Shown here: in pieces, positions 5,466 to 32,900 of the stretch
Position numbering within the stretch: the first letter of the stretch is position 1
Layout: each line of letters begins with the position of its first letter
Source of the DNA: Minisyncoccota bacterium
GTDB taxonomy: Bacteria; Patescibacteriota; Minisyncoccia; Phycocordibacterales; UBA6899
Length of the DNA: 64,000 nucleotides
Direction: 5' to 3'
NCBI GenBank assembly: GCA_035583355.1
Contig: DATEZQ010000003.1
Span: forward strand, 193,844 to 257,843
Made by a program: the position numbers and the translations under genes
Notes under the pieces: model-generated
Told to the model about the DNA's origin: nothing
Seen by the model: the letters and a program-made list of their open reading frames with translations, nothing else
The model's database searches: none

Positions 5466-5550
5466 GCGACCTTGCCCTCACGCTTCGGCATGCGACTCGC
5501 TCACCGTACTCCATGTACGGCTCGCTAGAGTTCGCACGCCTCCAGCGAGG
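5466..5550 (+). repeat. intergenic repeat family copy A (downstream of fusA)
   Basis: Shares cctcacgcttcg, a GTAC-core palindrome, ctcgctagagttcgcacgcctcc and tccagcgagg with the copies at 15575-15637, 19043-19265 and 45462-45545. Confidence 0.65.
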
Positions 5551-5816
5551 GCAATCTCATCCCAAATCTGAAATTTATCGTTCAAATAAAAACGCCCCTC
5601 GGCGTTTTTATTTTTCAAGATTTGCTGAAGCGCTATGACCTTGCTATTTTATTGTACTCGATAAAATGGAAAGGGGCCGGGAAAACAGCAGTTTTCCCGT
5701 GGAGGAAGGCAGTGAGTCTTCGAGCGCCCTGAACCGTGGGTTTCCGAGGAGCAATATTCCTCGCGGTTTCATTGTTTGTTATAAGTAAAAACGCCCCACG
5801 GCGTTTTTGGGGAGGT

Positions 5817-6338
5817 CTAGCGGCCAGAAAAATCTTGGGTATAGATTGCGCACTTGTAAGCGCCAGGGCTACTGATGACGGTGGGGTCTGCGAAGTCTCC
5901 GTTTGGGAGACAGAGCGACATGGTGTCGGACAAATATCCCGTTTGTAGTTTATACCCCGCACCATTTGAAGCATAGTGATAGCCTTCCGTTACGCCTACT
6001 CCCGCACAGCCACTGGGGTCGATTGGCAGTATGGGGATGAATTCGGGTGCAAGGTCGGGGATGAACCCATTGCTTCCCGAGCGGTCGAGTCCCCAAGGGC
6101 CATCACCGGGATTTTTGCAAACACTAAGCCACATATTGGATGTGTTTGGGTAGGTATTGTATTTGTCTTTGTAGAGTTCGAGTGCCGTGTTGAGCTGCTT
6201 GAAGTCGCTGTAGCGTCTTGCGACACGCGCTTTCATGCGTGCACTGCTCAGTGCAGCCAGGATGACACTCGAAAGAAGTCCGATAATCGCAATCACAACC
6301 AAGAGTTCAATGAGAGTGAATCCTTTTTGATGTTTCAT
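5817..6338 (-). CDS. type IV pilin-like protein (prepilin-type N-terminal cleavage/methylation domain)
   Basis: MKHQKG|FTLIELLVVIAIIGLLSSVILAALS class III signal with conserved E5. Start taken at the M preceding the pilin leader. Confidence 0.8.
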   Translation of the reverse strand: MKHQKGFTLIELLVVIAIIGLLSSVILAALSSARMKARVARRYSDFKQLNTALELYKDKYNTYPNTSNMWLSVCKNPGDGPWGLDRSGSNGFIPDLAPEFIPILPIDPSGCAGVGVTEGYHYASNGAGYKLQTGYLSDTMSLCLPNGDFADPTVISSPGAYKCAIYTQDFSGR

Positions 6339-6949: not shown

Positions 6950-7282
6950 AATTCGAATGAAGTATGAATTGTATAAAGAAAAACCATCGCTTAGGATGAG
7001 TCGAGAGATGTAGCACGTGTATGCGTGATACAAGGGTGACCGGTTACGCCAGTAGCTCCGCACGGTTCAGGCGTCCAAATAAGAACCGCGTTTCATTGCT
7101 TCCACCTAAGTATGTATAGTGAATTATGGTTTGCATTTTAAGTCAAGCATTTTATACTTGACTAATATAATTGTAAGTGTCATATGGGTTGTCCTAGGGC
7201 AGGTGCACAAATTCGATATTGTTCTCGTTGCATTTCTGTTTGGTTGTTGTAGTGTAACTTCAGAAAAGTATATGGAGATTCT

Positions 7283-8311
7283 ATGTGCGTGTGTGAAAAG
7301 TATCCCGAGGTCTTGCTCTCTGTGCAAAGCGTCCAAAAACTCGCGCGAGCTGATGGTTTGAGGAACGCGTCAATTGTGCGCAGAGTACTGATTGACGATC
7401 GTCCGGTTGTGCTCGTGCAAGCTTGGAATAAATACAATCAAAAAGTTCACCTCTTGCTTTGCCCTGGTGATGTCTGCTATCGCAAAGAACTGCAGGTGCT
7501 TCCGAGCGGCGAAAAAGTCCTGACTCGCATCATAGAGGACACATACAAGTGCCAACGCAAAGAAGAACTTCGAAAACAGATTCGTACTGAAGTTGAAGCT
7601 GCGTATCGGAAGGGGAAACTCTCTTATGATCCAGTGCGACTCATTATGAATATGTTTGAGCGCGTTTCTGCGGGGGAGTATCTTGGAGAGTTCAGCCCCG
7701 GCATTATTTACGTTCAAGAAGTCGCAGAGATGCTGAATCGAATATTTCTTTCAAAGCCAGGAATTCTGGGAGCAAAGTCGTTCTGTAGTTTTAAGGAACG
7801 CAAAAAGCGTTTTGCGAACGATCGGCCACCATTCTTCCTTAGTCTTGGTTTTCCGCTCGAAAAGATCATGGGAAAACTTAGGGTCGATAATTCGCTTGCG
7901 TATGCTCCGCTCACGAACGAGGAGTGTCGTACTGCTGCATTTTTCGAAGATACGCTTGCGCTTATCGAACGTCTTGTGGAGCAGAAGAAATTGGGCCTAC
8001 ATGGAATGATTCTCTGTGCCCCTTACCCCGAGGAGACGCCTGATCAAGAGCGTATATTGCTCGAGGAAAATCACAGTGCGCTGCTCTATGCGCGCGTGGA
8101 AGGGATGCATGTCTTCCAGGTGCAGCGTCATTATAATCCTGAGTTCGCGTCCCTCTGCGTTTTCAGGCAGCAAGGTGAGACGCGTGCAAAGATTGTCGCT
8201 GTGAAGAAGGTGCACCTCTCCTTTGGTGCCATATTCGGGCCAGATGTTTCGGATGTGGAATACTGGAGTGAGTGTTTCTCTTACTTCCTGTTGCATGGTC
8301 GTTTGAAATAG
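7283..8311 (+). CDS. hypothetical protein
   Basis: 342 aa ORF. Terminator hairpin ggggcacctcggtgcccc+T at 8317-8345. Confidence 0.5.
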   Translation: MCVCEKYPEVLLSVQSVQKLARADGLRNASIVRRVLIDDRPVVLVQAWNKYNQKVHLLLCPGDVCYRKELQVLPSGEKVLTRIIEDTYKCQRKEELRKQIRTEVEAAYRKGKLSYDPVRLIMNMFERVSAGEYLGEFSPGIIYVQEVAEMLNRIFLSKPGILGAKSFCSFKERKKRFANDRPPFFLSLGFPLEKIMGKLRVDNSLAYAPLTNEECRTAAFFEDTLALIERLVEQKKLGLHGMILCAPYPEETPDQERILLEENHSALLYARVEGMHVFQVQRHYNPEFASLCVFRQQGETRAKIVAVKKVHLSFGAIFGPDVSDVEYWSECFSYFLLHGRLK

Positions 8312-18094: not shown

Positions 18095-18943
18095 ATGAAA
18101 ACATTTAAACCAACTACACCAAGTCGTCGTAACACCGTTTTGACTCCCTACAAGGAGCTCCTCTCAGGTGATCAGACCGCAAAGCCAAAGGGACTCGTCA
18201 AGGGTGAGAAGCGCGCTATGGGCCGCAACAACGCAGGTCGCATCACAATGCGTCACCGCGGTGGTGGTAACAAGAAGCTTCTCCGTGTTGTTGACTTCAA
18301 GTTTGACAAGAAGGACGTTCCTGCTCGTGTAGAGGCCGTACAGTACGACCCACTCCGCACAGGTTTCGTCGCACTCGTTGTATATCGTGACGGTGAGCGC
18401 CGCTACATTCTTGCTCCAAAGGGCATGAAGGCAGGTGATACCATCATGGTCAGCGAGACTGCACCAATTGCTCCAGGTAACCGCCTTCCACTCCGCAAGA
18501 TCCCAGTGGGTACATTCGTGTACAACATCGAGATCAAGCCAGAGGGAGGTGCTAAGGTAGCCCGCGCTGCTGGTAACTTCGTTGAGCTTATCGCTAACGA
18601 CGATGGACAGGCATTCCTTAAGATGCCATCATCTGAGGTCCGTAAGGTCTCAGAGAACTGCTGGGCAACTATCGGTCAGGTATCAAACGATCAGTACAAG
18701 CTTCGTAACGAAGGTAAGGCTGGCCGTAATCGCTGGATGGGTATTCGCCCAACTGTGCGTGGTACTGCTATGAATCCCGTTGACCATCCACACGGTGGTG
18801 GTGAGGGACGTCAGGGCCGTGGACTTCGCCGTGCGAAGACCATGTGGGGTAAGCCATCAGGAAAGGGACAGAAGACACGTTCACCAAAGAAGTACTCGAA
18901 TGTCTTTGTGGTCACGCGTCGCGTTGTCGGAAAGAAAAAGTAA
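18095..18943 (+). CDS. rplB: 50S ribosomal protein L2
   Basis: MKTFKPTTPSRRNTV...GRNNAGRITMRHRGGG... L2 family. Confidence 0.95.
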   Translation: MKTFKPTTPSRRNTVLTPYKELLSGDQTAKPKGLVKGEKRAMGRNNAGRITMRHRGGGNKKLLRVVDFKFDKKDVPARVEAVQYDPLRTGFVALVVYRDGERRYILAPKGMKAGDTIMVSETAPIAPGNRLPLRKIPVGTFVYNIEIKPEGGAKVARAAGNFVELIANDDGQAFLKMPSSEVRKVSENCWATIGQVSNDQYKLRNEGKAGRNRWMGIRPTVRGTAMNPVDHPHGGGEGRQGRGLRRAKTMWGKPSGKGQKTRSPKKYSNVFVVTRRVVGKKK

Positions 18944-19042
18944 TTTTATTTCCACAAAACAAAAAGCGCCTTCGGGCGTTTTTTGTTTTGCGGAAATAAA
19001 ATTACTTTTTCTTTACGTTCACCTGCTGGGTGACGGCCGCAT

Positions 19043-19265
19043 CTTTTTGCTTGGATCGGCCTCACGCTTCGCCCACGACTCATGTCAATATTTTGTTCGC
19101 AAGGCTCCAAAATATTGTATGGTCTCGGGCCCGCCTCGCCGTCTCGAGGACTCGACATGGCTCCGGCTTACTCGCGGGAAAATGTTTCACATTTTCGATT
19201 CCCGCTCGTACTCCCTGCACCACTTTACACTATCGGACTCCAGCGAGGCCGCTGCAAGCAAAAAT
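19043..19265 (+). repeat. intergenic repeat family copy C (long form, downstream of rplB)
   Basis: Starts ctttttgcttgg..cggcctcacgcttcgccc and ends ggactccagcgaggccgctgcaagcaaaaat. Same termini as the short copy at 45462-45545, with about 130 nt of extra internal sequence. Confidence 0.65.
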
Positions 19266-19444
19266 CTGAGCGGGTACATTTTCTTGTATTTTACAGATTA
19301 AATATTAGTGCTACTCTATTATTACAAGCGGGGTAAATGCCAGCCTAACGAGGTGCTCGCGGAAATTTCAATTTGCTGCTTATTCGAATCACTAAAAATA
19401 ATCGCAATGAACATTTTTACAAAGATCGGCACGGAGGTCATCAT

Positions 19445-19550
19445 GCGGGGGAGGGTTCTTGACTCCTCTGATGCAAGTTTTTGTAGGCATTTAGTGGGCT
19501 GTCATCATCCCTGTATGATGACAAGGCGGGTTCAACTCCCGCCCTCCGCA
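19445..19550 (+). ncRNA. tRNA-like/tmRNA-like structured RNA candidate #1
   Basis: 5' GCGGGGG pairs 7/7 (one G-U) with 3' CCTCCGC. T-arm GCGGG-TTCAACT-CCCGC. Discriminator A, CCA not encoded. Terminator hairpin follows at 19566-19592. At 106 nt it does not fold as a canonical tRNA. Confidence 0.35.
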
Positions 19551-19565
19551 TAATTTTTATAAATA

Positions 19566-19592
19566 CTAAAAAACGCTAAATAGCGTTTTTTA
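19566..19592. terminator. bidirectional rho-independent terminator
   Basis: aaaaaacgcta-aa-tagcgtttttt. Serves the RNA candidate on + and the HEPN gene on -. Confidence 0.6.
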
Positions 19593-20165
19593 GTTTCTTG
19601 GTGTGTTCTCGATTAATATTTCTACTAGCGACCTAAGTGCGAAATATCCATTTCGAACTAAAATTTGATCTCTTATCGAATTTGGATCTTTCGTTCCATG
19701 AAAAAGATTATTACGAATTTGATACAACACCTCAACCATATTGCTCCAATCTTCTTGGTTATTTATGTTTCCCCGATCATCGCGAACCCCTATAAACTTA
19801 TTGCGGGAGGAGTTGTTCCACCAGCCAGCATCACCCTGAAGACCAGTATCATTAAGTTCATTCATGAGTTCAAGCCAGCTTCCTCTTAGTACTGAGTCCT
19901 TAGCAATTTGATTGATGTAATGCTGCTGCACGGTGGTTTCAGCCTTTAATATTTGAATCGAGCTACGCTCTTTCCCGTCCCCTCGATATAGCTGTCTTAT
20001 GAGTGATACAAACGCTAGATACTCCACCATGAATAGAATGAAAAAATCAATATTTGCTTTATTGTGCCAATCAATTGCTCTTTTTAAGAAATCAACAGGA
20101 GTTGCTCCTTCAAGCATTTTCATTAAAGCATTGATTTGCATCTGCAATTCTTCTAGGGTTGCCAT
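19590..20165 (-). CDS. HEPN-motif protein (putative Abi-like RNase)
   Basis: C-terminal QIRNNLFHGTKD matches the HEPN Rx4HG motif. Start chosen at MATLEEL. Confidence 0.45.
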   Translation of the reverse strand: MATLEELQMQINALMKMLEGATPVDFLKRAIDWHNKANIDFFILFMVEYLAFVSLIRQLYRGDGKERSSIQILKAETTVQQHYINQIAKDSVLRGSWLELMNELNDTGLQGDAGWWNNSSRNKFIGVRDDRGNINNQEDWSNMVEVLYQIRNNLFHGTKDPNSIRDQILVRNGYFALRSLVEILIENTPRN

Positions 20166-20248
20166 ATAGGTATTATATTCCAAACTAACAATACTTCAAT
20201 TTTATCTACTTGAGTGTGGACTGAGCTGGCATGTGCTAATATGAATAC

Positions 20249-20524
20249 GTGACCAAGAACCCAAAAAATATATTTGTACCTGATGCGGTGCTGGATCTGC
20301 AGAGGCTGTCGATGAAACAGGCGACGGCGAAGTTGAAGAATTTGCGCAGCAGCTACAAGAAGGGGACGAAGGTGCGCATACTCATCGGGAAGGGTGGGTA
20401 TGGATCAGCGCCTCCGGAGATCCCGACGCTGACGAAGAAATTTCTCACCAATGAGGGCTATGCTTGGTCCTATGCCAAGCCGGTGGATGGTGGTGATGGA
20501 GCGCTTGATTGTATTATCGAGTAG
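20249..20524 (+). CDS. Smr-domain protein
   Basis: VLDLQRLSMKQATAKLKNLRSSYKKGTKVRILIGKGGYGS resembles the Smr core (LDLHG...A...L...V.IIHGKG). Confidence 0.5.
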   Translation: MTKNPKNIFVPDAVLDLQRLSMKQATAKLKNLRSSYKKGTKVRILIGKGGYGSAPPEIPTLTKKFLTNEGYAWSYAKPVDGGDGALDCIIE

Positions 20525-20539
20525 TCATAACAAACAGAA

Positions 20540-20572
20540 TACTGTTCAATAAAAAATGGGGCCTGGCCCCAT
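20540..20572. terminator. bidirectional terminator
   Basis: aaaaaatggggcc-tg-gccccattttt between convergent genes. Confidence 0.6.
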
Positions 20573-20604
20573 TTTTGTTTTTCTACTGAGCGATACTTAT
20601 TTGT

Positions 20605-21126
20605 TTATGTTCTAAGGGCGGCATTACGCACGTCGTCGTCGCTCACCTCTCCAGCAAGATACTTGCAGAGCAAATTGGTGTCGGCTGGTGTGCCCGGGAG
20701 TCCTGCGTAGGGGGTAACAAAATCCGTGCCGTCTTGCAGGGTGACCGAGATGCCATGGCCGGTTACGAATCCTCTGCGCTCGGGGAGGATCCACGTTTCC
20801 AGAATAGCGAGGGTGTGTTGTTTGCTGCCTTCATCCCAGCTAAGCTTGAGGAATGTTGGGATGCGTTCGGCATCCTGTCTTTTCCGCAACGTGGGTGGAT
20901 AGAGCGGGACACAGAGCGCGATGATTCCTTCTTTGCCCTCTTCGGGGTAGAAGGTGATGCGCTTATGGTCTTCGACCAAGCTTCTTCCGGGCTTCGAGCG
21001 GACGGAAGTTCCAAGCAGAAAGATCGCGTTGTGGGAATCTTTGACGCCAAGATGGATCGTGTTGCCCTCACGTTCCGTATAGAGCAATTCGTCGATACGC
21101 ATACCGTCTCCAATGTGCATGAACAA
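20605..21126 (-). CDS. hypothetical protein
   Basis: 173 aa ORF with no recognised motif. Confidence 0.4.
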   Translation of the reverse strand: MFMHIGDGMRIDELLYTEREGNTIHLGVKDSHNAIFLLGTSVRSKPGRSLVEDHKRITFYPEEGKEGIIALCVPLYPPTLRKRQDAERIPTFLKLSWDEGSKQHTLAILETWILPERRGFVTGHGISVTLQDGTDFVTPYAGLPGTPADTNLLCKYLAGEVSDDDVRNAALRT

Positions 21127-21233
21127 ACTGTGCTGATACTAGCGCATATAACACAATGGTCAAGAAAATGTAAGCAGTTACTATTTTGCTCATACTATTC
21201 TCTACTGCCCATTTATGCTATTATGCGGGCAAT

Positions 21234-21497
21234 ATGAAAAAGCCATACGAAGAGGAGGTTGATGAGGATGAGCAGGATGAGGACGAGGTCGTCGTCGATG
21301 CGAATGGTACGCCGCTCGCAAATGGCGATACTGTGCTCGTTATTAAGGATCTCAAGGTAAAGGGAAGTCCGGTTGGTTTTAAGAAGGGGACTAAGATCAA
21401 GAACATTCGCCTTACGGGTGGTACTGAAGGTATCAGTGGTAGCACTGATCAGATCAAGGGTTTCACGATTCGCGCAGAATACGTGAAGAAGGCATAA
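21234..21497 (+). CDS. PhnA/YjdC-like protein (C-terminal domain only, acidic N-terminus)
   Basis: VVDANGTPLANGDTVLVIKDLKVKGSPVGFKKGTKIKNIRLTGG...IKGFTIRAEYVKKA closely parallels the E. coli PhnA C-domain. The N-terminal Zn-ribbon is replaced by EEEVDEDEQDEDE. Confidence 0.65.
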   Translation: MKKPYEEEVDEDEQDEDEVVVDANGTPLANGDTVLVIKDLKVKGSPVGFKKGTKIKNIRLTGGTEGISGSTDQIKGFTIRAEYVKKA

Positions 21498-21523
21498 ATA
21501 AAAATGGGGTCTGACCCCATTTT

Positions 21524-22054
21524 TTAATACGTTGGACTTTCCTCACTAATTCCTGCACGGTGATTCGACTGGCGCGCAAGGGCATAGAGGAGGCTCGAAA
21601 GACGATTGAGGTAGGCAAGTGTTGAGGGATTGAGTGCGAGGATGCCTTCGTCGTGCACGGCAACCATGCGACGCTCCGCTCGTCGCGCGATTGTGCGCGC
21701 AACATCGAAGAGTGCTCCGAGTTCGGTTCCTCCAGAAACGAAGAAAGTTTTTACTGGCGGTAGGGTAGTTTCGATGTCGTTAATGATCTGTTCTATTTCC
21801 GTCACTGACTCCTGTGCAATATTTTTGTCTGCACCAGCAGTTTCTGCTTGCGCGATGAAGAGGTTATTCTGTACATTCCCGATGAGGGTACCAAGCTCGA
21901 GGCCAACTTGTTTGTGTACTTTGATGAGTCCTAGAAACGAGTTTATCTCATCAAGTGTGCCAAGAGCCTCTGTAATCGAGGAATTTTTCGAGAAGCGTAC
22001 TTTTGAGCCAAATGCGCTTGTTGTTCCGTCGTCACCTTTTCCTGTATAAAGCAT
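21524..22054 (-). CDS. ATP:cob(I)alamin adenosyltransferase (PduO-type)
   Basis: MLYTGKGDDGTTSAFGSKVRFSKNSSITEALGTLDEINSFLG is the N-terminal signature of the PduO/MMAB family. Start at the internal M, 22054. Confidence 0.7.
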   Translation of the reverse strand: MLYTGKGDDGTTSAFGSKVRFSKNSSITEALGTLDEINSFLGLIKVHKQVGLELGTLIGNVQNNLFIAQAETAGADKNIAQESVTEIEQIINDIETTLPPVKTFFVSGGTELGALFDVARTIARRAERRMVAVHDEGILALNPSTLAYLNRLSSLLYALARQSNHRAGISEESPTY

Positions 22055-22115
22055 AGGACAAGTGTAGCATGTTCCTTTGCATGAGAAAAAGCGCCACTTT
22101 GTGGCGCTCGCTGAT

Positions 22116-22403
22116 TCATTCGAAAGCGATGTGGGGGACAAGCGGCTTGGTGACTGGACTCGCGAGGCACTCGGTGCACAGCGCGCCCGCAGCTTCGGCC
22201 TTGCTTGTGGAGGCAGAGCGCCAGCTGACGGAGGGCCGCACTTTCAAGAGCTTTCCGCCCTCCGTGGGCAGGGTGGTGTACTTGTTCAGGTCGCAGTTGC
22301 ACTGATCGGGAATCGCGTCGGTGGTCTCGACGTTGCGTGCCTCGACGACTACGCCTACTCCGCACAGTATGCAGAGATACTTCCGCTCCTCTTTGTAGGT
22401 CAT
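22116..22403 (-). CDS. small Cys-rich (zinc-ribbon-like) protein
   Basis: CILCG...CNC...CTEC motifs. The overlapping +strand ORF (22077-22574) looks non-coding. Confidence 0.3.
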   Translation of the reverse strand: MTYKEERKYLCILCGVGVVVEARNVETTDAIPDQCNCDLNKYTTLPTEGGKLLKVRPSVSWRSASTSKAEAAGALCTECLASPVTKPLVPHIAFE

Positions 22404-22574
22404 ACGCACTCCTTCTGTATTGTTCGCCAGCGCGAACGAGGGTCTGTGCCTATGCTACGCTTTGCGGCACCATACGTCAAATGGCTCATTATTCTCAGAT
22501 TATTGCAAAGCCTCCTTACGTACGGTAGTCTACGTGTAGAGCCATTGTATTGCAGTATTTCTGAAAGGGAGCAC

Positions 22575-23387
22575 ATGCAGAAGTCACTGTTATCGCGTCA
22601 CTTTGAATTTGGAATTTGGATGTTTGATCTTGACGATACGCTCATGTGGAATTGCACGACGTACAATCAGCCCATCATCGATTTCATTCAGTACCTCACT
22701 GAGGTCTTTGGAAATCGCATTCCCTCATTGGGGACGATGGCACGCATTCAGGAAGACATCGATTGCGGACTGGGGAAGAAGCCTAACCCACGTACGGGTG
22801 AGCTCTATGGATTTGGGGCGGACCGTTTCCCTGATTCATTGATGATCACGTATCGTCAGCTCTGCACGCGTGGGTTCGGCACCTATGATGCAAATGTTGC
22901 AGAGCGGTGTCGTGAGATTGGGAAGCGTGCATTCGATGTGGAGAATTATTCCCGGCTCGGACTCGTGCCGGGAGCACAAGAGCTCTTGGACGCAATTCCC
23001 GTACAGCACCATCAGGTACTTGTCACCAAAGGTGAAAAGTGGGTGCAGGAGAACAAGATCAATGCCCTTGGTTTTCGCGATTGGTTTGATGACATCTTCA
23101 TCGTCGATCACAAGGATGGCGATACGTATCGAGACATTCTCTCGAGCCTCCGCGCAAAAGCAGGGATGCAGTCTGAGCTCTATGTGCCCGAAAACTGCAT
23201 CGCGGTAGGGAATTCGTTCTCATCTGATATCGCACCAGCACTCGCACTCGGCATGAACGCAATCTTCATTCCATGCCCCACATGGATAGCGGAGAGTGTA
23301 ATTGTCGACGAACTCTCCGAAGATGCGAGTAGCCGCTTCGTGGAACTTGAAAACATTTCCGAAATCCATTCGCTCATTTCGTACTAG
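22575..23387 (+). CDS. HAD-superfamily hydrolase
   Basis: WMFDLDDTLMWN (DxDxT motif I). GAAAGGGAG SD before the ATG at 22575. The ORF track's upstream extension is rejected. Confidence 0.65.
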   Translation: MQKSLLSRHFEFGIWMFDLDDTLMWNCTTYNQPIIDFIQYLTEVFGNRIPSLGTMARIQEDIDCGLGKKPNPRTGELYGFGADRFPDSLMITYRQLCTRGFGTYDANVAERCREIGKRAFDVENYSRLGLVPGAQELLDAIPVQHHQVLVTKGEKWVQENKINALGFRDWFDDIFIVDHKDGDTYRDILSSLRAKAGMQSELYVPENCIAVGNSFSSDIAPALALGMNAIFIPCPTWIAESVIVDELSEDASSRFVELENISEIHSLISY

Positions 23388-23430
23388 AAAAAGCGCCGCA
23401 TGTTGCGGCGCTTTGTTGTATTTCCTTGAA

Positions 23431-24087
23431 TCACTTCGGCATCTGGAGCGGATCCATGACGCCGGTTTCGTAGGCCTTCTTGGTCTGGCTGTCGAGGATG
23501 ATGCGTTCCATCTTCTCGAGTGCTTCTTTCCCGTAATAGACCTTGTCGCCGATGCGGGCCTGGAGGTTGTTCGTGGGGAAGAAGTACTTGAGGATGTATG
23601 CGCGTGCGAAGCCCTTGCGACGCCAATTGTTGTAGGTGCGAATCTGGTCGAGCAGGTAGTCCTGCTTTCCCTTGAAGGCCTCGCGACCCGCTTTTACGAA
23701 CGGGAGAATCTTGTCATAGATTCCGAATTCGTTCGTGCCGGGGTAGGCCTCCTTGATCATCGAGACCATGGCCGAACCATCGAATCCGCCACCTTCTTTA
23801 TCGTAGCGGCCAGTGACGGCGTCGGTCATGAACTTGGTCATCTTGTCGCTCTTCATGTTCGCGATGCCGGCCTGCTCGTAGAACCCGGAGACGTAGGAGC
23901 TGAGCTCGTTCTGGTTGCTGAGGAAGAGCGCGGACAGCGCGGTCTCCTGGGGGACGCTTTCGTTGTACGTGTCGTTCACACAGGAGTAGGACAGGAGGAG
24001 CGCGATGATCGCGATCGCACCATAGACCCACTTCTTGAGCTTCTTCCAGGAGAAGCTGAATCCGTTGTCGTTCGCATTCTCGTTCAT
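23431..24087 (-). CDS. membrane-anchored hypothetical protein
   Basis: N-terminal TM WVYGAIAIIALLLSY. AAGGAG SD. Start overlaps the stop of the upstream gene (operon with 24090-25565). Confidence 0.5.
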   Translation of the reverse strand: MNENANDNGFSFSWKKLKKWVYGAIAIIALLLSYSCVNDTYNESVPQETALSALFLSNQNELSSYVSGFYEQAGIANMKSDKMTKFMTDAVTGRYDKEGGGFDGSAMVSMIKEAYPGTNEFGIYDKILPFVKAGREAFKGKQDYLLDQIRTYNNWRRKGFARAYILKYFFPTNNLQARIGDKVYYGKEALEKMERIILDSQTKKAYETGVMDPLQMPK

Positions 24088-24089
24088 GA

Positions 24090-25565
24090 TCACTCCTTGA
24101 TGTGTATGCGCAGCTTGCGCAAGACTTCGTTGAAGAAAGAGTCTCCGTCGCACATAGCGAAGAGGACCCAGATGAGGCACGAGGTGATGAATGCGGCGAT
24201 GCCGATATACCATTCCTGATCTCGCCCGAGGCGAATATCATTCTTGAGATAAAGGTAACCGCCTTGTCCGTCCTTCCCAGTCATCGAGACGCGTTTGAAA
24301 CGGACGCCTTGCACTTCTTTGCCCATAAGGATACGGGGGATTATTCCCGGCTCCTTTTGCGCTTGATTCATTACGCTGATGTTCCATCGCGTTGCGACGG
24401 ACGAAAAGAATGAATCATCAGCGACATTGTTCTGACTCGACTTTGCTACGCTCATCGGTTTTCCGAGGAGTAGCTCGTGCGAAAAAGGCTTTCCCGCCAA
24501 TTGCTCATTGAGCGCGATGGTCAGGCGTTCGTTTCCGCGGGGCATGCCGGTAAAGGCACGTGCATAGTCGACATGCTCTCCACTATCTCGAGTGCCGATG
24601 AGCACAACAAGTGCATTCTTCGCGAGTGCATCTTTGCCGTGCTTTCCAGAATCGAGCATGTATGCTTGGAGTGCGAGCATGTAACGGTCGGGATTGCCAC
24701 TAATGAGTTTTTCATTAGTGATGATCACGTAGAGGTCGCACTGCACATCGCCGAGACTTGCATTGGTATACGCAAGGGATTGCGCCCACCCATTACTGAA
24801 GGGGACGTTGCCAAAGATGAAACAGCGCTGTGGATTAATGAACCCCGAAAGATTGCGTGCAAGTTTCGGCATGAGGCCTTTCGCTTCGTACTCTGCGATA
24901 TCACCAGAGTGCTTGCGCATGAGCGATTCATTGCTCGCGAGGATGTAGTTGTCGTAGGAATTACGCGTGGTGACTGGGGCAGGTTGTCCCTGCTGTAGTC
25001 GCTCGCGCAAAGCACGCCATGAGCTCGGTTCGCCGACGCCCGCACGCTGCTGGATGTAGTCCGGCACAGGCACCGACCTCCGCCAGCGATGCTGGTTGGG
25101 ATTCTCGGGAAGGCGATATGAGTCGACAGTGTAATCACCGAGTGTTGTTCCCGCGTTGTAGTTCAGTTCGAACGTTGTATACGGGCACTGATGATAGCGT
25201 GTCTCTGCACGATAGCAGGTTCGCGACTGTTTGCCGTCGCCGCACTCATAAGGGACCATAACGACATACGGATCGCAGTCGTAGGTCCAGCGGCCCGGTC
25301 CATCGCGTGAAGTCTTGATGAGCTCACGCGTCGCGCTGCTTTCCCAGCCGTTCCAGTTTTCGTTGAAGGTGAGATTGCTTGCCTGTGCAATTTTCCATCC
25401 AATCCACGCAGTGGAGGGGACGAGAATGGTACAGATTGCGATCGCACCGGTCACGAACTCTATTTGCGTGATGCGCAGATAGGGGTGGAAACGCTTGAGT
25501 AGTGCTCCGGTGATGAATCCTGCGAGGAGTGCGGCGATGATGACGTAGAGTGCAATGGTAAGCAC
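24090..25565 (-). CDS. membrane protein (2 N-terminal TM, large extracytoplasmic domain, C-terminal TM)
   Basis: 491 aa. Hydrophobic segments at both ends. Cys-rich segment YDCDPYVVMVPYECGDGKQSRTCY. Confidence 0.5.
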   Translation of the reverse strand: MLTIALYVIIAALLAGFITGALLKRFHPYLRITQIEFVTGAIAICTILVPSTAWIGWKIAQASNLTFNENWNGWESSATRELIKTSRDGPGRWTYDCDPYVVMVPYECGDGKQSRTCYRAETRYHQCPYTTFELNYNAGTTLGDYTVDSYRLPENPNQHRWRRSVPVPDYIQQRAGVGEPSSWRALRERLQQGQPAPVTTRNSYDNYILASNESLMRKHSGDIAEYEAKGLMPKLARNLSGFINPQRCFIFGNVPFSNGWAQSLAYTNASLGDVQCDLYVIITNEKLISGNPDRYMLALQAYMLDSGKHGKDALAKNALVVLIGTRDSGEHVDYARAFTGMPRGNERLTIALNEQLAGKPFSHELLLGKPMSVAKSSQNNVADDSFFSSVATRWNISVMNQAQKEPGIIPRILMGKEVQGVRFKRVSMTGKDGQGGYLYLKNDIRLGRDQEWYIGIAAFITSCLIWVLFAMCDGDSFFNEVLRKLRIHIKE

Positions 25566-25757
25566 AGAGGCTCCTTTTTTGAAAGAATTTCTATGGTAAC
25601 ATAACCATGCAAAAGTGCTTTTGTCAATAACATCAAGTCTACATACTTAATGGAAATACTAGGAAAGAAAGAATGCACGCGATGGAATGTTACAGTCTTC
25701 GTTTAGATTGCTCAATAGTGGAATTGCTTTATACTTATGTACATAACTATTAATATC

Positions 25758-26324
25758 ATGGCAAACCAAGAAAGTGGTGCAGGGATGGCACGCGAGCGCG
25801 TCGCCTCAGATATCGAATTAACGAAGGGTGGTGCAGATTACACGGTAGACGCAGGGGCAGACCGCCCTCGTCTCGAGGCAACACAGGAGCAGATCGAGGC
25901 TATGCGTGGGATGGAAAATAACGCAGAGCTCGGTGCAGCTGCTTTGCAGCAAATCGGCGAGCGTGTTGCTGCAGAAAAGGCTGAAGCTGCAGAGATCGAG
26001 AAGCAGGAAAAGGCAAAGGCCGATGCACTCATTGTTGTGCAGCGTGATAAGTTGAATCAACTTTATGATGCAGCGAACTACTCTCCAGAAGAGCGTAATG
26101 ATACTGAGATTGGACACATCAAACTTGCCGTTGATTTGAGTAAAGATAAGTGGACTCCTCGTGATCAGCGTCCACAGAATAAGCCACCTGTTGTACAAGG
26201 TTTTGGTGATAATCGCCCACAGCGAGCGCAGGCCGCAGGCTACTATGCAGGCACATTGCCTACAACTGCTCCCCCAGTCCAAAAGCCAAAGGGTTTCCTG
26301 AAAGGACTATTCGGTGGCAACTAG
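25758..26324 (+). CDS. hypothetical protein
   Basis: ORF with an Ala/Glu-rich region. Terminator hairpin aagagcaccttcggggtgctcttt at 26352-26376. Confidence 0.4.
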   Translation: MANQESGAGMARERVASDIELTKGGADYTVDAGADRPRLEATQEQIEAMRGMENNAELGAAALQQIGERVAAEKAEAAEIEKQEKAKADALIVVQRDKLNQLYDAANYSPEERNDTEIGHIKLAVDLSKDKWTPRDQRPQNKPPVVQGFGDNRPQRAQAAGYYAGTLPTTAPPVQKPKGFLKGLFGGN

Positions 26325-26428
26325 TAGATATTCCTCTATTTTGCATAACAAAGAGCACCTTCGGGGTGCTCTTTACAATATATAAAATATATCGTAGGGT
26401 TTAGCGAGAAGTGCTCCAGAGGTGCACC

Positions 26429-26968
26429 ATGCACACTGCTACGCTGAAGTTTGAGCTTGAACAGCTGCACATTATTAGTGGCATCAAAGTCTGCCGAAAG
26501 GATGACCTCGAGAACATCCATGTTTATGCAGACAGCAAGCGTATGCTTGTCCTGCCGATTACCATCGAAGATCCTCCGCTCATTATTCACCGCGGTGAGA
26601 CAGAGGACGAAATGTTGTACTATCTTTCGCGCCTATCACTCGTATCCGACGGTCGAGGTGGACTCTTCGCCTCTCGCGAGGTGGGTGACAAGGAGAAGAT
26701 GCTTCTCCTCATCGACACGCGAGATGAGGGAGCCCCGCTGCGAAACTCTGGTGAGTACACGATTCCGCGAATGCACGATGTGCGACTCCCGAGTAAGCGT
26801 ACTTCTCGCAGGCTAGGAGAGGCTAAGTTTGGCATGATCGTGTGTGTACCTAGCGAGTCATATTTCGTGCGGTCTACTAGTGGTCACGTCGCGAAACTCA
26901 CACTGGGGGCAGATGGTGTGTTCTCTTGTTCTCCTTGTGATGGGCGCAAAGTTTCATTTTCAGGCTAA
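26429..26968 (+). CDS. hypothetical protein
   Basis: ORF followed by the terminator ggcccgcaaccgcgggcctttt at 26981-27003. Confidence 0.4.
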   Translation: MHTATLKFELEQLHIISGIKVCRKDDLENIHVYADSKRMLVLPITIEDPPLIIHRGETEDEMLYYLSRLSLVSDGRGGLFASREVGDKEKMLLLIDTRDEGAPLRNSGEYTIPRMHDVRLPSKRTSRRLGEAKFGMIVCVPSESYFVRSTSGHVAKLTLGADGVFSCSPCDGRKVSFSG

Positions 26969-27009
26969 GTAATAGGTTAAAGGCCCGCAACCGCGGGCCT
27001 TTTGTTATT

Positions 27010-27561
27010 TTACCAATCTATTGCATTTGCCGTACTCATCTTCCATGCCCAGATTCCCGCTGGGTCAGTGTAGTCGACCGTTGTCGAACTTACTCCTCCG
27101 TCGCGATAAGGGTCAATAAGCTCGGGGTGACTCGTGTAGTTAAAGTTCGAGTCAACGTCTCTCATACGGTGCGCGAGGATGGCATACCCCGTTCCAAATT
27201 GATCGACACGATAGATGTAGCATGCAGTCGTGCCATTGGTGATTGGTTGCACGGGGAAGCGAGGGAGATAGTTGGGAACGAGTCCAGGAATGACCGCATT
27301 GTTCGCTAACCCGCCATACGAAGTACACTCAGTGCGCGTTTCCACTCCCGCGTATCCTCCAGTCGGGTAGAATCCATTCGCATCATTGTAGAGTTCGAGG
27401 GCAATTTTTATCTGTTCCATATCTGAAATGATGCGCGCCTCTTTTGCTTTCCTGCGTGCAGAAGATAGTGAAGCAAGCACGACGCTCGAAAGAATGCCAA
27501 TGATCGCAATGACAACAAGGAGCTCGATGAGTGTGAAGCCTTTTCGCGTGCTAATTTTCAT
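27010..27561 (-). CDS. type IV pilin-like protein
   Basis: MKISTRKG|FTLIELLVVIAIIGILSSVVLASL. Confidence 0.8.
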   Translation of the reverse strand: MKISTRKGFTLIELLVVIAIIGILSSVVLASLSSARRKAKEARIISDMEQIKIALELYNDANGFYPTGGYAGVETRTECTSYGGLANNAVIPGLVPNYLPRFPVQPITNGTTACYIYRVDQFGTGYAILAHRMRDVDSNFNYTSHPELIDPYRDGGVSSTTVDYTDPAGIWAWKMSTANAIDW

Positions 27562-27597
27562 TGGTGTATTTTATCATGAGTGAAAACTGATAAGAGC

Positions 27598-28224
27598 TTA
27601 ATTCGGCGAAGGGTCATATATAGTGTCGACATTCTCTCCGCCGTTACACCATTTCACGAGAAGCAGTGCTATCCCTGAGCCATACGAAGTATTATTGTTT
27701 TTACAGGATTGGGGATTGTTCGCATCCTCAAGTTGCGCAATAAGGTCGTAGGTATTTGGACGCGTTGCCTGGAGGTTCACCGCATTTACTCCTGTTCTTC
27801 CGACGTTGCCATATGCATAGACATAGCAATTGGCTTGCCATGGAGTGCACTTGCCACCATTGATGACATCACTCGCAGAGCCACTATTGAGTGGGTCGAC
27901 GGGGAGCCTTGGTATATAGGGAGCAAGATCAGCTTGGAGACTTGTCCATCCGGTATTATTGCTCACATCGTAACCGTGCGTGTCCCAACATGGTGGGGTA
28001 GAACATTCAGGTGCATAGGCCTGATGAATAGGTGGATAATATCCATTCGCATCATTATAGAGTTCAAGCGCAAGTGTAATTTGTGTAAAATCAGCAATGC
28101 GTCGCGCGTCACGAGATTTTTTACGTGCAGTAGTAAGACTTGCAAGCACGACGCTCGAAAGAATGCCAATGATTGCGATGACAACAAGGAGCTCAATTAA
28201 TGTAAAGCCGCGTGAAGATTTCAT
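27598..28224 (-). CDS. type IV pilin-like protein
   Basis: MKSSRG|FTLIELLVVIAIIGILSSVVLASL. The 5' ~70 nt are nearly identical at DNA level to 27010-27561. Confidence 0.8.
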   Translation of the reverse strand: MKSSRGFTLIELLVVIAIIGILSSVVLASLTTARKKSRDARRIADFTQITLALELYNDANGYYPPIHQAYAPECSTPPCWDTHGYDVSNNTGWTSLQADLAPYIPRLPVDPLNSGSASDVINGGKCTPWQANCYVYAYGNVGRTGVNAVNLQATRPNTYDLIAQLEDANNPQSCKNNNTSYGSGIALLLVKWCNGGENVDTIYDPSPN

Positions 28225-28319
28225 GAGTATATCTTACCACGATAGTATAAATAATGAAGTATAAAAGATGGTGCGCGCTTGTGCACTCATTTTCTTTGTT
28301 CTCATGTTATTATGGAGTA

Positions 28320-28925
28320 ATGGAAAGTGATTCATTTGCGCAACATCATCCACATACGCTTGGTGATTATCTCTCGCGTGGCCTCGTGCTTTTCGTATAT
28401 CGTACTGCAAAAGTAGTATTCCACTCGAGCTATGCTGAACATGCACTTGTACTTGAAGCCACATTATCTTCAATGCTGACCTCAGCAGCTACACATTTGC
28501 AGTATACTGCACTGCGTAATCTTCGTGCAGATCGTGCGCGTATCGAGGATCTCCTTGGAGAGGCAAGTAGTGAACATTTGCATCTTTTGGTACTCAAGCG
28601 TGTACAGACACTCTCTTGGCTAGGGCGTACAGCCATCTGGAAGATGCAGTTCATCTATGTACCACTTTTTCGTTTGCTGTATATCATTTCGCCTTCAGCT
28701 GCGCATCGGCTTATCGCGTATAGCGAAGAGCGACTTGCGGGTATTTACGCCGACTGGTTACTCGAATTGCTTTGTGGCGCTTCGGAGAATGCTCCTGCAC
28801 CCCTTGTTGCTATCCAATACTGGGAGCTTGGTGAAGAAGCGACACTTGTCGAACTCGTGAATGTACTCATTGCGGATACTGCGAAAAATCGCGATCGTAA
28901 CCACGCGATTGCAGATCAAAAATAA
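28320..28925 (+). CDS. hypothetical protein
   Basis: ORF followed by two terminator-like hairpins at 28922-28987. Confidence 0.4.
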   Translation: MESDSFAQHHPHTLGDYLSRGLVLFVYRTAKVVFHSSYAEHALVLEATLSSMLTSAATHLQYTALRNLRADRARIEDLLGEASSEHLHLLVLKRVQTLSWLGRTAIWKMQFIYVPLFRLLYIISPSAAHRLIAYSEERLAGIYADWLLELLCGASENAPAPLVAIQYWELGEEATLVELVNVLIADTAKNRDRNHAIADQK

Positions 28926-28988
28926 ACACCACCCGTGTTTATTTTTTTAGTGAAAAACGAGCGCCGAAGCGCTCGTGTGTTTTGTGAT

Positions 28989-30539
28989 TCACTTGATAAC
29001 TTTCTTAATTTTCAAGAACTTTCGCAGGTCTCGATATGCATCGAGGAAGCGCGTGTCATTTAGTGATTCAAGGATGTCCCTGAGTAGAATCTTATCATTT
29101 CTTTTAATGATGGTCGCATTCTTCCAGGCCACCTTGAGGAAGCGCACGATGATGTTTGCGGTGGGCCAGTCGCCGTGTTTTCCGGTAATTCGGAGATTGC
29201 GCACAATAGAGCGTGTTGTTGCGGTAATCTGCTCCCTGTACTGGGGGAGCACATTGGATAGTTCTGACCACTTGGGGCGGCCGGGCACATGGGTGTAGTC
29301 GTACAAGAGCATGATGCTCGAGAGTGCAGACTCATCCCAGATGACCTCCCCGAATGTACTTTCTGCTGCTATCGCAAGTGGAGTCTCACACACCCTTTCT
29401 TTCAGGTGCATGAGCGTCATCATTGATGCGAACTTGATCGCAAGTGGTTGGTGCTGCTCGCTACTCATGATTGCGATGCGCAAGTGCTCTGGAAGGTTCA
29501 GATAGTAATTCGCGATGGCAGTATGCATTCGGATGTTGCGCTCAACCCAGCGTCTGGAGCCTGCATCCTGCCGCTCGAATCGGTCGGTGTCGATTGCAAG
29601 CAATTTATTGCCCACGAATAAGAGGACGGATTCGGGAAGCAGTCGCGGTGCTCTCCAGCATGCTGAGTGCAGCGCTGCCGCATTGCCCGGACTCTCGATC
29701 GTTGCGAGGAGGGCGAACGGAATGAGGTCGTGTGCCGCTTCTTTCCTCTCGGAGAGCAGTTTGAATGCCGCGGCACGCAGTTCAGGGAGTAGTCGCGTAT
29801 TCGCGACGAGCCGAAGGAGTTCCGTTGATTCGATCGTCGCATCAAGCTCGCTCATCAGGTCGAAGGCTGCAATGAGGATCGCATTGGAATCAGCCTCATC
29901 ACCCCTCCATGTTCCCTTGAGCAACATGGTCACTTTGTACCAGTCGCAAGTTGAGTTGAGCGCAGCAGCGATCCGTAGCGCCCGAGACTCATCCATGTGC
30001 TCCCTGATGTACGAAATGTAGTGATCATGGATCGGTGAGCGATGTGCCGAAAGGATACAACCGATGCGTGACATGAGCTGTACCGGGTAGACCTTGTCAT
30101 CAAGGATCCGCCGCATCTCTTTTGCGAACAAGGACCAGAGCGATTCGCCGTATTCGGCAAAAGCATCACTGAGGTCCCAGTTCTCGCAGAGGAGCTTGTG
30201 GCGCAGAAAGAGTCCGGCGCGAGTACTGCCTGTCTCGACTTCCGCGAACGGAGTCTGTTCGATCAGGAGGCGGAGTATGAGTCCACCCCAGTTGTAGGTC
30301 TCACCGGACATTGCGTCGAGTAATTCATCGACGCCTGCCGCGAGGATACGGTCACCGACTTCTTGGTAGGTGCCGGTGAAGAAGGGGGGAGGGGTAGATA
30401 TGGCGACCATTGTCGCTCCCGTTGCTCGGCGGAGTATTCTCCGCAGTAAAGAAAGAACGCAGCTTTGTACATCACCCACGATGGGTGATGCGCGCTGTTT
30501 CATTATTGTTATAGCACGCAGGAGGGTTGCGTCAAACAA
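28989..30539 (-). CDS. hypothetical protein (516 aa), co-directional with the upstream CapA-family gene
   Basis: Long helical-looking ORF with no recognised motif. Confidence 0.5.
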   Translation of the reverse strand: MFDATLLRAITIMKQRASPIVGDVQSCVLSLLRRILRRATGATMVAISTPPPFFTGTYQEVGDRILAAGVDELLDAMSGETYNWGGLILRLLIEQTPFAEVETGSTRAGLFLRHKLLCENWDLSDAFAEYGESLWSLFAKEMRRILDDKVYPVQLMSRIGCILSAHRSPIHDHYISYIREHMDESRALRIAAALNSTCDWYKVTMLLKGTWRGDEADSNAILIAAFDLMSELDATIESTELLRLVANTRLLPELRAAAFKLLSERKEAAHDLIPFALLATIESPGNAAALHSACWRAPRLLPESVLLFVGNKLLAIDTDRFERQDAGSRRWVERNIRMHTAIANYYLNLPEHLRIAIMSSEQHQPLAIKFASMMTLMHLKERVCETPLAIAAESTFGEVIWDESALSSIMLLYDYTHVPGRPKWSELSNVLPQYREQITATTRSIVRNLRITGKHGDWPTANIIVRFLKVAWKNATIIKRNDKILLRDILESLNDTRFLDAYRDLRKFLKIKKVIK

Positions 30540-30564
30540 AAACCACCAGAGGTGGTTTTGGAAA

Positions 30565-31695
30565 TTATTGAACAGTAGAGAGTGAAAACGCGCATCCGCT
30601 TGGGCTGATGTTGGGCATCACTCCAAGGTATTTTGTGCACCACTGATTTGCCTCAACGGGAGAGAGGAACGTTGGTACTGCGCGTACTATCTTGTAGGGA
30701 TAGAGCATGAACTCACTACTTCCTGAGTAGAGGCTCATGCCAACGCCGACTCCTTCGTTTTGTTTTTCTCCAATTTGATCGAAGATAAAATTACCGACTG
30801 CGTAGAATATTGCATGTCCCTTATAGACCTCAATATTTTCTATGACGTGCGGATGGTTGCCGATGATGACATCTGCTCCTGCATCGATCCAGCGATGCGC
30901 AAGAATTTTTTGAGTGTCATTCGCACGAGGTGCATATTCGTCACCCCAGTGTACGGTGACAAGTACGAGGTCATGTGAACCTTTAAGTTTTGCGATGAGC
31001 GTAGGGATTTTCTCGAGTGACATGGCGCCTATTGTTGCATCGAGTCCGACAATCGCGATACGGGTTCCGCTCGCATTGCGAGACTCGACCCACGTACTGT
31101 CGATTTGTGGGTAACCCGCTGCAAGTATTTCCGCATTGAGTAAATACTTCATGCTCGAATCAATCCCGGCTTGATTGCAGTCGAGCATGTGATTGTTTGC
31201 AATGGTCACCGCATTGAATCCCTCAGACTTGAGTAGCTTTGCGGTTGAAGTAGGGAATTGAAAATTCAGCTCCTTTTGCTGGCATTCACTGCGCGGCATT
31301 GCAATGATAGGTCCCTCAAGGTTGAGCATGCGGATATCATAGTCACTCATGATGTCCATAGCGCGAAGACTGGAGAAGAGGTCGGTGCCATTGTCAACGG
31401 TTTTGCGCACTGCACGATCGAACATCGCATCACCAAAGTGAAGGAGTTTCATTGGAGCAAAATTGGTACTCTTTTTGAAAGGTGCAACGACCTCAGTGGT
31501 TGTGGCCTCGTCTGTTGTTGTGGCGACATTAATGATTGGATTTGTGGGAGTAGCAGCAAGCATGCCCCCACTGAATGTTATAGGACCCGTGCGCCCAATG
31601 ACTTTGCCAAGTGCATTTGAGAAGATAAAAACGTTTACCGTTGATATAACTACGATAAGAAGTCCTATATAGAGGTGATGTTTGCGCGCCTGCAT
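30565..31695 (-). CDS. CapA/PgsA-family metallophosphoesterase
   Basis: HFGDAMFDR...MLNLEGP...TIANNHMLDC...TVHWGDEY...IIGNHPHV. N-terminal TM anchor. Confidence 0.7.
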   Translation of the reverse strand: MQARKHHLYIGLLIVVISTVNVFIFSNALGKVIGRTGPITFSGGMLAATPTNPIINVATTTDEATTTEVVAPFKKSTNFAPMKLLHFGDAMFDRAVRKTVDNGTDLFSSLRAMDIMSDYDIRMLNLEGPIIAMPRSECQQKELNFQFPTSTAKLLKSEGFNAVTIANNHMLDCNQAGIDSSMKYLLNAEILAAGYPQIDSTWVESRNASGTRIAIVGLDATIGAMSLEKIPTLIAKLKGSHDLVLVTVHWGDEYAPRANDTQKILAHRWIDAGADVIIGNHPHVIENIEVYKGHAIFYAVGNFIFDQIGEKQNEGVGVGMSLYSGSSEFMLYPYKIVRAVPTFLSPVEANQWCTKYLGVMPNISPSGCAFSLSTVQ

Positions 31696-31774
31696 AGAGT
31701 TATAGTACCGCTAATTAACAAAGAGTAAAGCGTGTGATTGTTGCAAAAGAGATGACTTCTTGTACTATGGGTTT

Positions 31775-32854: not shown

Positions 32855-32900
32855 AAAATAAAAAACACTCACCATCTGGTGAGTGTTTTTGCGTTTTTTG

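Follow-up and report, generated by a model that had tools for sequence, protein, structure and literature searches.

A possible tRNA-Leu-derived, non-decoding tRNA-like element in a HEPN-motif gene cassette downstream of rplB in a Minisyncoccota bacterium

Downstream of rplB in a Minisyncoccota genome lies a short segment that begins and ends like a tRNA, which raises the question of whether it is the genome's transfer-messenger RNA (tmRNA, encoded by ssrA), a tRNA or something else. We addressed this question in a 64,000-nt (64-kb) stretch of that genome, which we call the window. An earlier interpretation made from the letters alone (the sequence-only reading) had described a 106-nt tRNA-like acceptor/T-arm domain, too long and too non-canonical inside for a tRNA, and had put forward either this element or a second one at position 58870 as a possible ssrA. 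The description holds; neither ssrA proposal is supported. The placement of the element immediately after rplB also turned out to be loose, since rplB ends at 18943 and its own long terminator hairpin (18928-19018) comes next, then a palindromic repeat rich in G+C (about 19044-19264) and an AT-rich spacer (19271-19327, 26% G+C) that leads to the element. The features of the element and its immediate surroundings are as follows.

19317 to 19322, plus strand: candidate -10 box TATTAT, a sequence reading, within the AT-rich spacer
19328 to 19444, plus strand: 5' segment that may be a leader or the 5' domain of a 223-nt transcript
19445 to 19451, plus strand: 5' acceptor strand GCGGGGG, pairing 7/7 with CCTCCGC at 19543-19549
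19451 to 19468, plus strand: hairpin 1, in the position of a D-arm, not D-arm-like (minimum free energy (MFE) fold and sequence reading)
19470 to 19491, plus strand: hairpin 2, in the position of an anticodon arm (MFE fold)
19500 to 19523, plus strand: perfect 9-bp hairpin UGUCAUCAU-CCCUGU-AUGAUGACA, in the position of the long variable arm of class II tRNAs (MFE fold)
19526 to 19542, plus strand: canonical T-arm GCGGG-UUCAACU-CCCGC
19543 to 19550, plus strand: 3' acceptor strand CCUCCGC and discriminator A (A19550)
19565 to 19594, no strand assigned: terminator-like hairpin with a T-run, bidirectional and of the intrinsic type, common to the element and a convergent gene

Most of what had been read from the letters was borne out in this layout. 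The acceptor stem is complete, with G5.U68 as the single wobble among its seven pairs, the coordinates of the T-arm and of discriminator A were confirmed, and no CCA is encoded 3' of A19550, where the trailer reads UAAUUUUU. The intrinsic-like hairpin recognised as a terminator directly after the element is present and overlaps the stop codon of the convergent gene, which encodes a 197-aa protein. The 8-bp hairpin gtcatcat/atgatgac reported inside the element (19501-19522) extends to 9 bp with a flanking T-A pair; it carries a 6-nt loop, ends 2 nt 5' of the T-arm and exceeds the length of the extra arms in the tRNA-Leu genes that we retrieved. Also confirmed was an alternative 5' partner for the 3' acceptor strand, GCGGGGT at 19328, which forms 6/7 pairs and places the wobble at 5:68 and not at 3:70. 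The segment that would separate this alternative start from the acceptor stem (19328-19444) has no Rfam match and no other copy within the 64-kb window. Between the 5' acceptor strand and the T-arm the interior measures 74 nt, compared with about 57 nt expected, and its first two hairpins do not look like tRNA arms: the loop of hairpin 1 contains no GG and position 8 of the element is A, not U, while hairpin 2 consists of the stem GAUGC/GCAUU and the 12-nt loop AAGUUUUUGUAG, has no 7-nt anticodon loop and was left unaligned by the Rfam tRNA and tmRNA models.

The fold of the 106 nt is unlikely to be accidental. Its MFE structure (-42.5 kcal/mol, z = -2.7, with 0 of 200 shuffled sequences as stable) is a five-way junction whose arms follow each other in class II tRNA order, that is acceptor stem, hairpin 1, hairpin 2, 9-bp hairpin and T-arm. 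The longer form, 19328-19550, pairs both ends in its MFE structure as well, more weakly (z = -2.4; equalled by 5 of 200 shuffles). When the 74-nt interior was shuffled, a perfect hairpin of at least 8 bp arose in 0.33% of cases and one of at least 9 bp in 0.065%, and a 7/7 partner for the 3' acceptor strand appeared within 198 nt upstream in 6.8% of dinucleotide shuffles. Other repeats inside the 223 nt (GUCAUCAU twice, GCGGGG twice and the 8-bp pair UAAAUGCC/GGCAUUUA) were discarded as being, by estimate, at chance level for that length. The 19-mer TCAACTCCCGCCCTCCGCA occurs once in the 64-kb window, with 0.02 occurrences expected. As to the T-loop said to be shared with the element at 58870, an 11-nt core is indeed common to both, but this 11-mer, GGTTCAACTCC, carries no significance by itself: with at most one mismatch it has 3 matches where 0.98 would be expected, a number equalled in 10 of 100 shuffles.

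Could this structured RNA be ssrA, in the 223-nt form from 19328 or in the 106-nt form? Its T-arm, which we take to be identical to that of E. coli tmRNA, the alignment of this arm by the Rfam tmRNA model, the ability of the 5' and 3' ends to pair and the terminator downstream are what such a reading would draw on. ARAGORN, however, returned 0 tRNAs and 0 tmRNAs over the 64 kb, and at gathering thresholds Rfam recognised only 23S rRNA, 5S rRNA, a c-di-GMP-II riboswitch and an L10 leader in the same sequence. When Rfam was run permissively on the region, RF00023 covered nothing but the 17-nt T-arm (model positions 347-363) at 13.5-16.3 bits, compared with a gathering threshold of 47, and the permuted family RF04321, likewise confined to the T-arm, scored 7.2 bits; no full-length tRNA or tmRNA alignment was obtained, and all Rfam tmRNA families failed. 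When the ARAGORN threshold was lowered to 70%, the only tmRNA call was a permuted one on the opposite strand. The sequence details also speak against ssrA. With both candidate 5' strands the 3:70 pair is G-C, the sole wobble being the one at 5:68, and the alanine determinant is therefore absent; there is no encoded CCA; and among the short frames with a stop codon we found, as the sequence-only reading had, a single candidate tag, which ends ...FAAYSNH and is not credible. Furthermore, the acceptor stem and discriminator are of the tRNA-Leu type (see below), and the element is missing at this site in close relatives, where a core gene would be expected to be present. We therefore rejected the tmRNA reading and regard it as having next to no chance of being correct. 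The genome's ssrA probably lies outside the 64-kb window. The literature was searched for tmRNA in Parcubacteria and in the candidate phyla radiation, and nothing relevant was retrieved. A canonical or intron-bearing tRNA was rejected too, as ARAGORN under relaxed settings forces either a tRNA-Stop(tta) with a 30-nt 'intron' or a tRNA-Thr(tgt) onto the sequence. For annotation this means a correction, in that the element is neither ssrA nor a tRNA.

The second candidate for ssrA, the 58870 locus, was resolved by inspection into two tandem irregular tRNA-like units with CCA encoded at the end of each.

58870 to 58965: unit 1, GGGGCUG/CAGCUCC, followed by U and CCA
58979 to 59047: unit 2, GGGGCCG/CGGCUCC, followed by G and CCA

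This locus is 81% identical in the relative L137, and the comparison revealed compensatory changes, which in unit 1 affect an anticodon-like stem and in unit 2 the T-stem and an internal hairpin. L137 does not keep the stop codons that the locus has in the window, so that no conserved tag frame exists, and the Rfam tmRNA model gave the locus 27 bits, below threshold. An ordinary tRNA was rejected here as well, because relaxed ARAGORN calls disagree between the orthologues, with Asp(gtc) plus intron on one side and Ile(tat) plus intron or Pyl(cta) on the other. We conclude that 58870 is a real RNA locus and not a canonical ssrA, and its conserved pair of units is more promising for follow-up than the element on the rplB side.

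The identity of the ends of the rplB-side element became apparent when one genome per GTDB species was scanned for the exact pattern GCGGGTTCRANTCCCGCCCTCCGC, which matched in at least 120 species. In these species (at least 120), tRNA genes, mostly of bacterial tRNA-Leu, end with the very 24 nt that the T-arm and the 3' acceptor strand form here; at 12 sampled loci the gene at the match was tRNA-Leu in 7 and archaeal tRNA-His in 2, with no gene called in the remaining 3. Among the 124 matches listed, the discriminator is A in 85, while the 5' start reads GCGGGGG in 43 (followed by TG or AG) and GCGGAGG in 24. Among the tRNA-Leu genes with exactly the same T-arm as the element are L012, L032 and L116. 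The two acceptor strands, discriminator and T-arm of the element are thus those of an ordinary bacterial tRNA-Leu. Comparison with a canonical tRNA-Leu accordingly recovered the 7-bp acceptor stem, A73, the 5-bp T-stem and the 7-nt T-loop, but not the core (U8, A14, G18G19 and a 5-bp/7-nt anticodon arm with U33). With no U8, G18G19 or U33, the D- and anticodon arms are unrecognisable, and the RNA therefore cannot decode. Judged by sequence, the likeness to the E. coli tmRNA T-arm is a weaker and less informative one than the match to tRNA-Leu: a T-arm match alone can mislead, whereas T-arm, acceptor strand and discriminator jointly indicate tRNA-Leu.

Isolated 3' fragments of the same tRNA-Leu end are common among the matches listed, one example being found in a Patescibacteria metagenome-assembled genome (MAG; L033). 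The idea that covariance models might expose the element as a fragment of something whose remainder lies elsewhere is thus partly right, as the 3' part is a tRNA-Leu-type 3' end, but neither a tRNA-Leu 5' half nor any other remainder is located elsewhere in the 64-kb window. The genome's own tRNA-Leu genes fall outside the window.

The genomic context was analysed next to that of relatives. Homologues of RplB assign the organism to the candidate phyla radiation (Paceibacterota/Parcubacteria). The element is part of a cassette of about 1.3 kb (18946-20230) that consists of the palindromic repeat, the element and the convergent gene.

19590 to 20183, minus strand: 197-aa gene with a HEPN-type R-x4-H motif, convergent with the element, in the cassette 18946-20230

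In the relative L002, whose RplB is 98% identical and whose DNA is 97% identical over the 3' end of rplB, other genes occupy the place of 18946-20230, and the flanking Smr and YjdM genes are kept. No T-arm follows rplB in L002, in L133 (RplB 95% identical), in L004 or in L005 and L006 (syntenic site only), so that the check for homologous elements downstream of rplB in relatives, proposed with the sequence-only reading, found none at these sites. The cassette is a strain-specific, horizontally acquired segment. The G+C content of the 197-aa gene is 38%, compared with 49% for the 64-kb window, and the only other copy of its protein, in NCBI and Logan assemblies, comes from the same genome.

The 197-aa protein belongs to a family of 128 representatives. 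In an alignment of 46 homologues, the motif RNNLFH shows no variation at R157 and H162 and very little at the four residues between them, N158-N159-L160-F161, and the AlphaFold model is all-alpha (pLDDT 85). An all-alpha domain and a conserved R-x4-6-H motif are what defines the HEPN superfamily, and the protein has both; none of the solved structures matched it. One homologue is encoded between hsdM and hsdS (L007) and another beside DruA (L009), and both surroundings are defence contexts; the position within the type I restriction-modification (R-M) operon of L007 is presumably the one that PrrC occupies. A further homologue (L139) is flanked by two large ORFs. Neither a tRNA nor a T-arm was found near the homologues (L007-L010, L136, L139, L140), and without a tRNA-like neighbour at these loci the pairing of RNA and protein is not a conserved module; this candidate was dropped.

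Relatives of the element itself were sought in several collections. A 30-mer retrieved nothing useful from viral contigs, and a gapped pattern of 5' strand and 3' domain found in them only phage tRNA-Val genes with a chance heptamer upstream. In JGI metagenomes the 24-mer had 0 matches, and a 25-mer with the G preceding the T-arm returned only two unrelated GC-rich fragments; blastn against phage genomes found no relative of the element. A 'mini tRNA-like' sequence in L101, GCGGGGGAGGG..., was rejected because what it spans, in a gene resembling tRNA-Leu, is the anticodon plus variable region and not an acceptor stem; Rfam recognised nothing in L101. As no relative was found in the viral, JGI metagenome or phage searches, the element is an orphan that permits no covariation test. 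The collection scans relied on exact patterns, and the genome matches listed (at least 120), being ordinary tRNAs, could not expose rare homologues.

Which history, then, would account for an element with the ends of a tRNA-Leu and a foreign interior? Direct evidence covers the match in sequence, the fold, the setting in the cassette and the lack of the element at this site in relatives. Building on this, we favour, at a probability of roughly one half, a tRNA-Leu-derived, non-decoding tRNA-like element that was imported with the HEPN cassette and has its minihelix intact. A tRNA-Leu gene would be its ancestor and would have entered together with the cassette; selection, or else a very recent origin, would have left the acceptor/T-arm minihelix intact, and the decoding half would have given way to other sequence. 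The interior is unlike tRNA-Leu and the 24-nt 3' module and 5' heptamer match exactly, a contrast that would exclude uniform neutral decay; either the middle was swapped through recombination or the minihelix is held by selection. What weakens the tRNA-Leu-derived element as an explanation is that the searches for relatives gave it neither covariation nor conservation as support, that no promoter was called at 19271-19327 by the consensus scan, that the 5' strand taken by itself may be a chance partner (6.8%), and that homologues of the neighbouring gene lack a tRNA-like neighbour. A plainer history is possible, if doubtful, namely that the element is a recombination or integration scar, left by or imported with a mobile cassette that was once at a tRNA-Leu locus, in which case only the last 25-50 nt would stem from a tRNA-Leu gene, GCGGGGG and the fold would have arisen by chance and nothing would be functional. 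The same 3' end with unrelated sequence upstream does occur elsewhere (L033, L034, L055, L104, L110, L134, L135), ARAGORN finds no gene at the fragment in the Patescibacteria MAG, and the orphan status of the element, the chance frequency of its 5' strand and its place on the margin of a variable, AT-rich cassette of horizontal origin would all suit a scar; a 3' tRNA fragment bordering a variable or foreign segment, the first mark of an attachment (att) scar, is thus present. The other marks are missing, however: the 64-kb window contains no second copy of the 19-mer, even at 3 mismatches, the five cassette-side ORFs scanned against Pfam include no recombinase and no integrase was found, and ARAGORN detects no intact tRNA upstream. 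A 39-kb island with the T-arm elements at 19530 and 59025 as att repeats was rejected, as only the 11-nt T-loop core is common to them. Moreover, chance would very rarely put a perfect 9-bp hairpin right beside the T-arm (0.065%), and 5' strand, hairpin and class II arm order are jointly hard to obtain accidentally.

Two further alternatives assign a role to the locus. The RNA might be a functional tRNA mimic working with the HEPN-motif protein, for example as a pseudo-substrate or RNA antitoxin that restrains a tRNA-targeting nuclease until infection halts production of this RNA. Such a partnership would fit the invariant R-x4-H motif of HEPN RNases in the neighbouring protein, the homologue inside a type I R-M operon, and the fact that the gene here stands alone, without hsd genes, convergent with the RNA and sharing its terminator; RNA and gene were also gained or lost jointly relative to L002, and the RNA structure is not random. 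Nonetheless we think it improbable, because no such RNA accompanies other family members, because type III RNA antitoxins are arranged differently, as tandem repeats that precede the toxin in the same orientation, and because RNase activity, tRNA target and binding are all putative. Its more specific version, in which a maintained, non-decoding tRNA-Leu mimic would have replaced the R-M partner as the RNA partner (pseudo-substrate, antitoxin or sensor) of the HEPN-motif protein, is a little less probable again. If it were true, a tRNA-shaped RNA antitoxin would exist in a bacterium of the candidate phyla radiation. Finally, the likeness to a tRNA could be incidental to a small Cys/His-rich protein of 36 aa starting at ATG 19443 (48 or 81 aa if translation began further upstream). 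The frame is open from 19308 to 19553, GGAGG (19433-19437) lies 5 nt before the ATG, and a terminator follows the stop codon. We give this very little credence: the product has no Pfam match, the Logan assembly, which contains the same sequence, has no gene called there, an open frame of 81 codons is no more than mildly unusual when G+C is about 50% (an estimated 2% or so per frame), and coding would explain neither the 24-nt tRNA-Leu identity nor the stable cloverleaf-like fold.

Returning to the tRNA-Leu-derived element, we infer its transcription, its processing and any function from the sequence. The TATTAT box would place a transcription start at about 19328-19330, in keeping with a start at an AT-rich, -10-like region and an end at the shared terminator; in the consensus promoter scan the only result was a weak TTTACA-17-CATCAT (19416-19444). 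A transcript with an intact minihelix would be a substrate for RNase P at U-1/G+1 (19444/19445), for 3' trimming and for CCA addition, and both the U in position -1 and the trailer UAA would fit such processing. Should the minihelix be under selection, the element would be a case of a non-decoding RNA of tRNA origin that accompanies a defence gene on its travels, here in a reduced genome of the candidate phyla radiation.

The element shares with tmRNA (SsrA) the module of acceptor stem and T-arm around a large non-tRNA insert, followed by a terminator, but differs in having no G3:U70, CCA, typical tag end or model-detectable pseudoknots, in its Leu-type acceptor and in not being conserved at the rplB site among relatives. 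Like att scars at the edges of genomic islands, it presents a 24-nt tRNA 3' end at the edge of a strain-variable acquired segment, yet an integrase, a direct-repeat partner and an intact tRNA at the other end are lacking, and scars need neither a matching 5' acceptor strand nor a perfect extra-arm hairpin. The RNAs of type III toxin-antitoxin systems are tandem repeats located upstream of, and co-transcribed with, the toxin. These systems (such as ToxIN) likewise have a small structured RNA gene beside a predicted RNase, in mobile defence surroundings, whereas the element is a single, convergent tRNA-like unit whose pairing with the gene is not seen for other family members, and no tandem repeats were found for it. 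Irregular or pseudo allo-tRNA-like genes have been described that are class-II-like, with long extra arms and disrupted arms or proposed five-stem junctions (Mukai et al. 2017; PMC7609411), and the element resembles them in its class-II-like form, long extra arm and five-way junction; allo-tRNAs are defined by a 12-bp acceptor branch in an 8/4 or 9/3 configuration (PMC7609411) and have Ser or Ala identity, whereas the element is 7/5, has Leu-type ends and no anticodon loop. From bacterial tRNA-Leu it departs in its length (106 nt versus about 85-90 nt), in an extra arm of 9 bp that is longer than usual, in the absence of U8, of a D-arm with G18G19 and of a 5-bp/7-nt anticodon arm (the loop having 12 nt), and in being missed by tRNA detectors at normal thresholds. 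With the same bacterial tRNA-Leu it has in common the stem GCGGGGG/CCUCCGC with G5.U68, A73 and the UUCAACU T-loop, with a hairpin just 5' of the T-arm, where the long extra arm would be, and many bacterial tRNA genes are, like the element, without an encoded CCA.

The other ssrA candidate of the sequence-only reading, at 58870-59047, consists of two irregular tRNA-like units in tandem, and this locus is conserved in a relative (L137, about 5040-5225), where the promoter region is nearly identical and compensatory changes are found in the T-stem, the internal hairpin and the anticodon-like stem. The locus is flanked by:

58820-58847, promoter-like segment
59060-59080, terminator

CCA is encoded in both units. 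In unit 1 the acceptor is of the tmRNA/tRNA-Ala type (GGGGCUG/CAGCUCC, G3.U70), the discriminator is U, the extra arm is long and a conserved loop carries ..CUACU; unit 2 has the acceptor GGGGCCG/CGGCUCC and G as discriminator. None of the tools recognised the locus at normal thresholds. The window and L137 share no stop codon here and we therefore ruled out a canonical tmRNA.

The S10 ribosomal-protein operon is in two pieces (18943-35885): rplB ends at 18943 and rpsS-rplV-rpsC-rplP restart at 35885, with approximately 17 kb of unrelated, in part strain-variable genes between rplB and rpsS. The operon is likewise broken after rplB in four relatives (L002, L004, L005 and L133). We also found a GC-rich, palindromic intergenic repeat family with the motif CTCACGCTTCG ... 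CTCCAGCGAGG and an interior of variable length:

5477-5550, + strand, window copy
19061-19248, + strand, window copy
45477-45527, + strand, window copy
about 4880-5050, copy in L002
about 3420-3560, copy in L133

Every window copy is shortly 3' of a gene end (5336, 18943 for rplB, and 45395); from size and position, the genes ending at 5336 and 45395 look like fusA-like and secY-like candidates, respectively. A second repeat, 58496-58566, is 90% identical to 5335-5404. Elsewhere in this Paceibacterota genome, a c-di-GMP-II riboswitch aptamer (7029-7112, - strand) scored 64.6 bits, above the gathering score.

Overlapping the tRNA-like element downstream of rplB, a small open frame (19443-19553, + strand; 36 aa, MRGRVLDSSDASFCRHLVGCHHPCMMTRRVQLPPSA) follows GGAGG at a distance of 5 nt; its product has no Pfam match and it is probably not a gene.

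In three loci of Micromonosporaceae genomes, GCTGAA repeats lie 5' of a tRNA-Leu 3' fragment, and tRNA-Leu 5'-half-like sequence (GCGGAGGT.GCCCAA..GGCAGAGGC) follows directly 3', so that the fragment order is permuted, which may be a sign of an integrated element:

L069, about 3230-3400, permuted arrangement
L076, about 5750-5920, permuted arrangement
L087, about 7290-7460 in reverse-complement coordinates, minus strand, permuted arrangement

The protein family of the 197-aa gene convergent with the tRNA-like element (19590-20183, - strand) is unannotated and, at 50% identity, comprises 128 representatives; Pfam holds no dedicated family for it, and an R-x4-H (RNNLFH), HEPN-type motif is invariant among its members. 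One member adjoins DruA, and another has hsdM on one side and hsdS on the other, the same position as that of PrrC, the gene for which is located between hsdM and hsdS.
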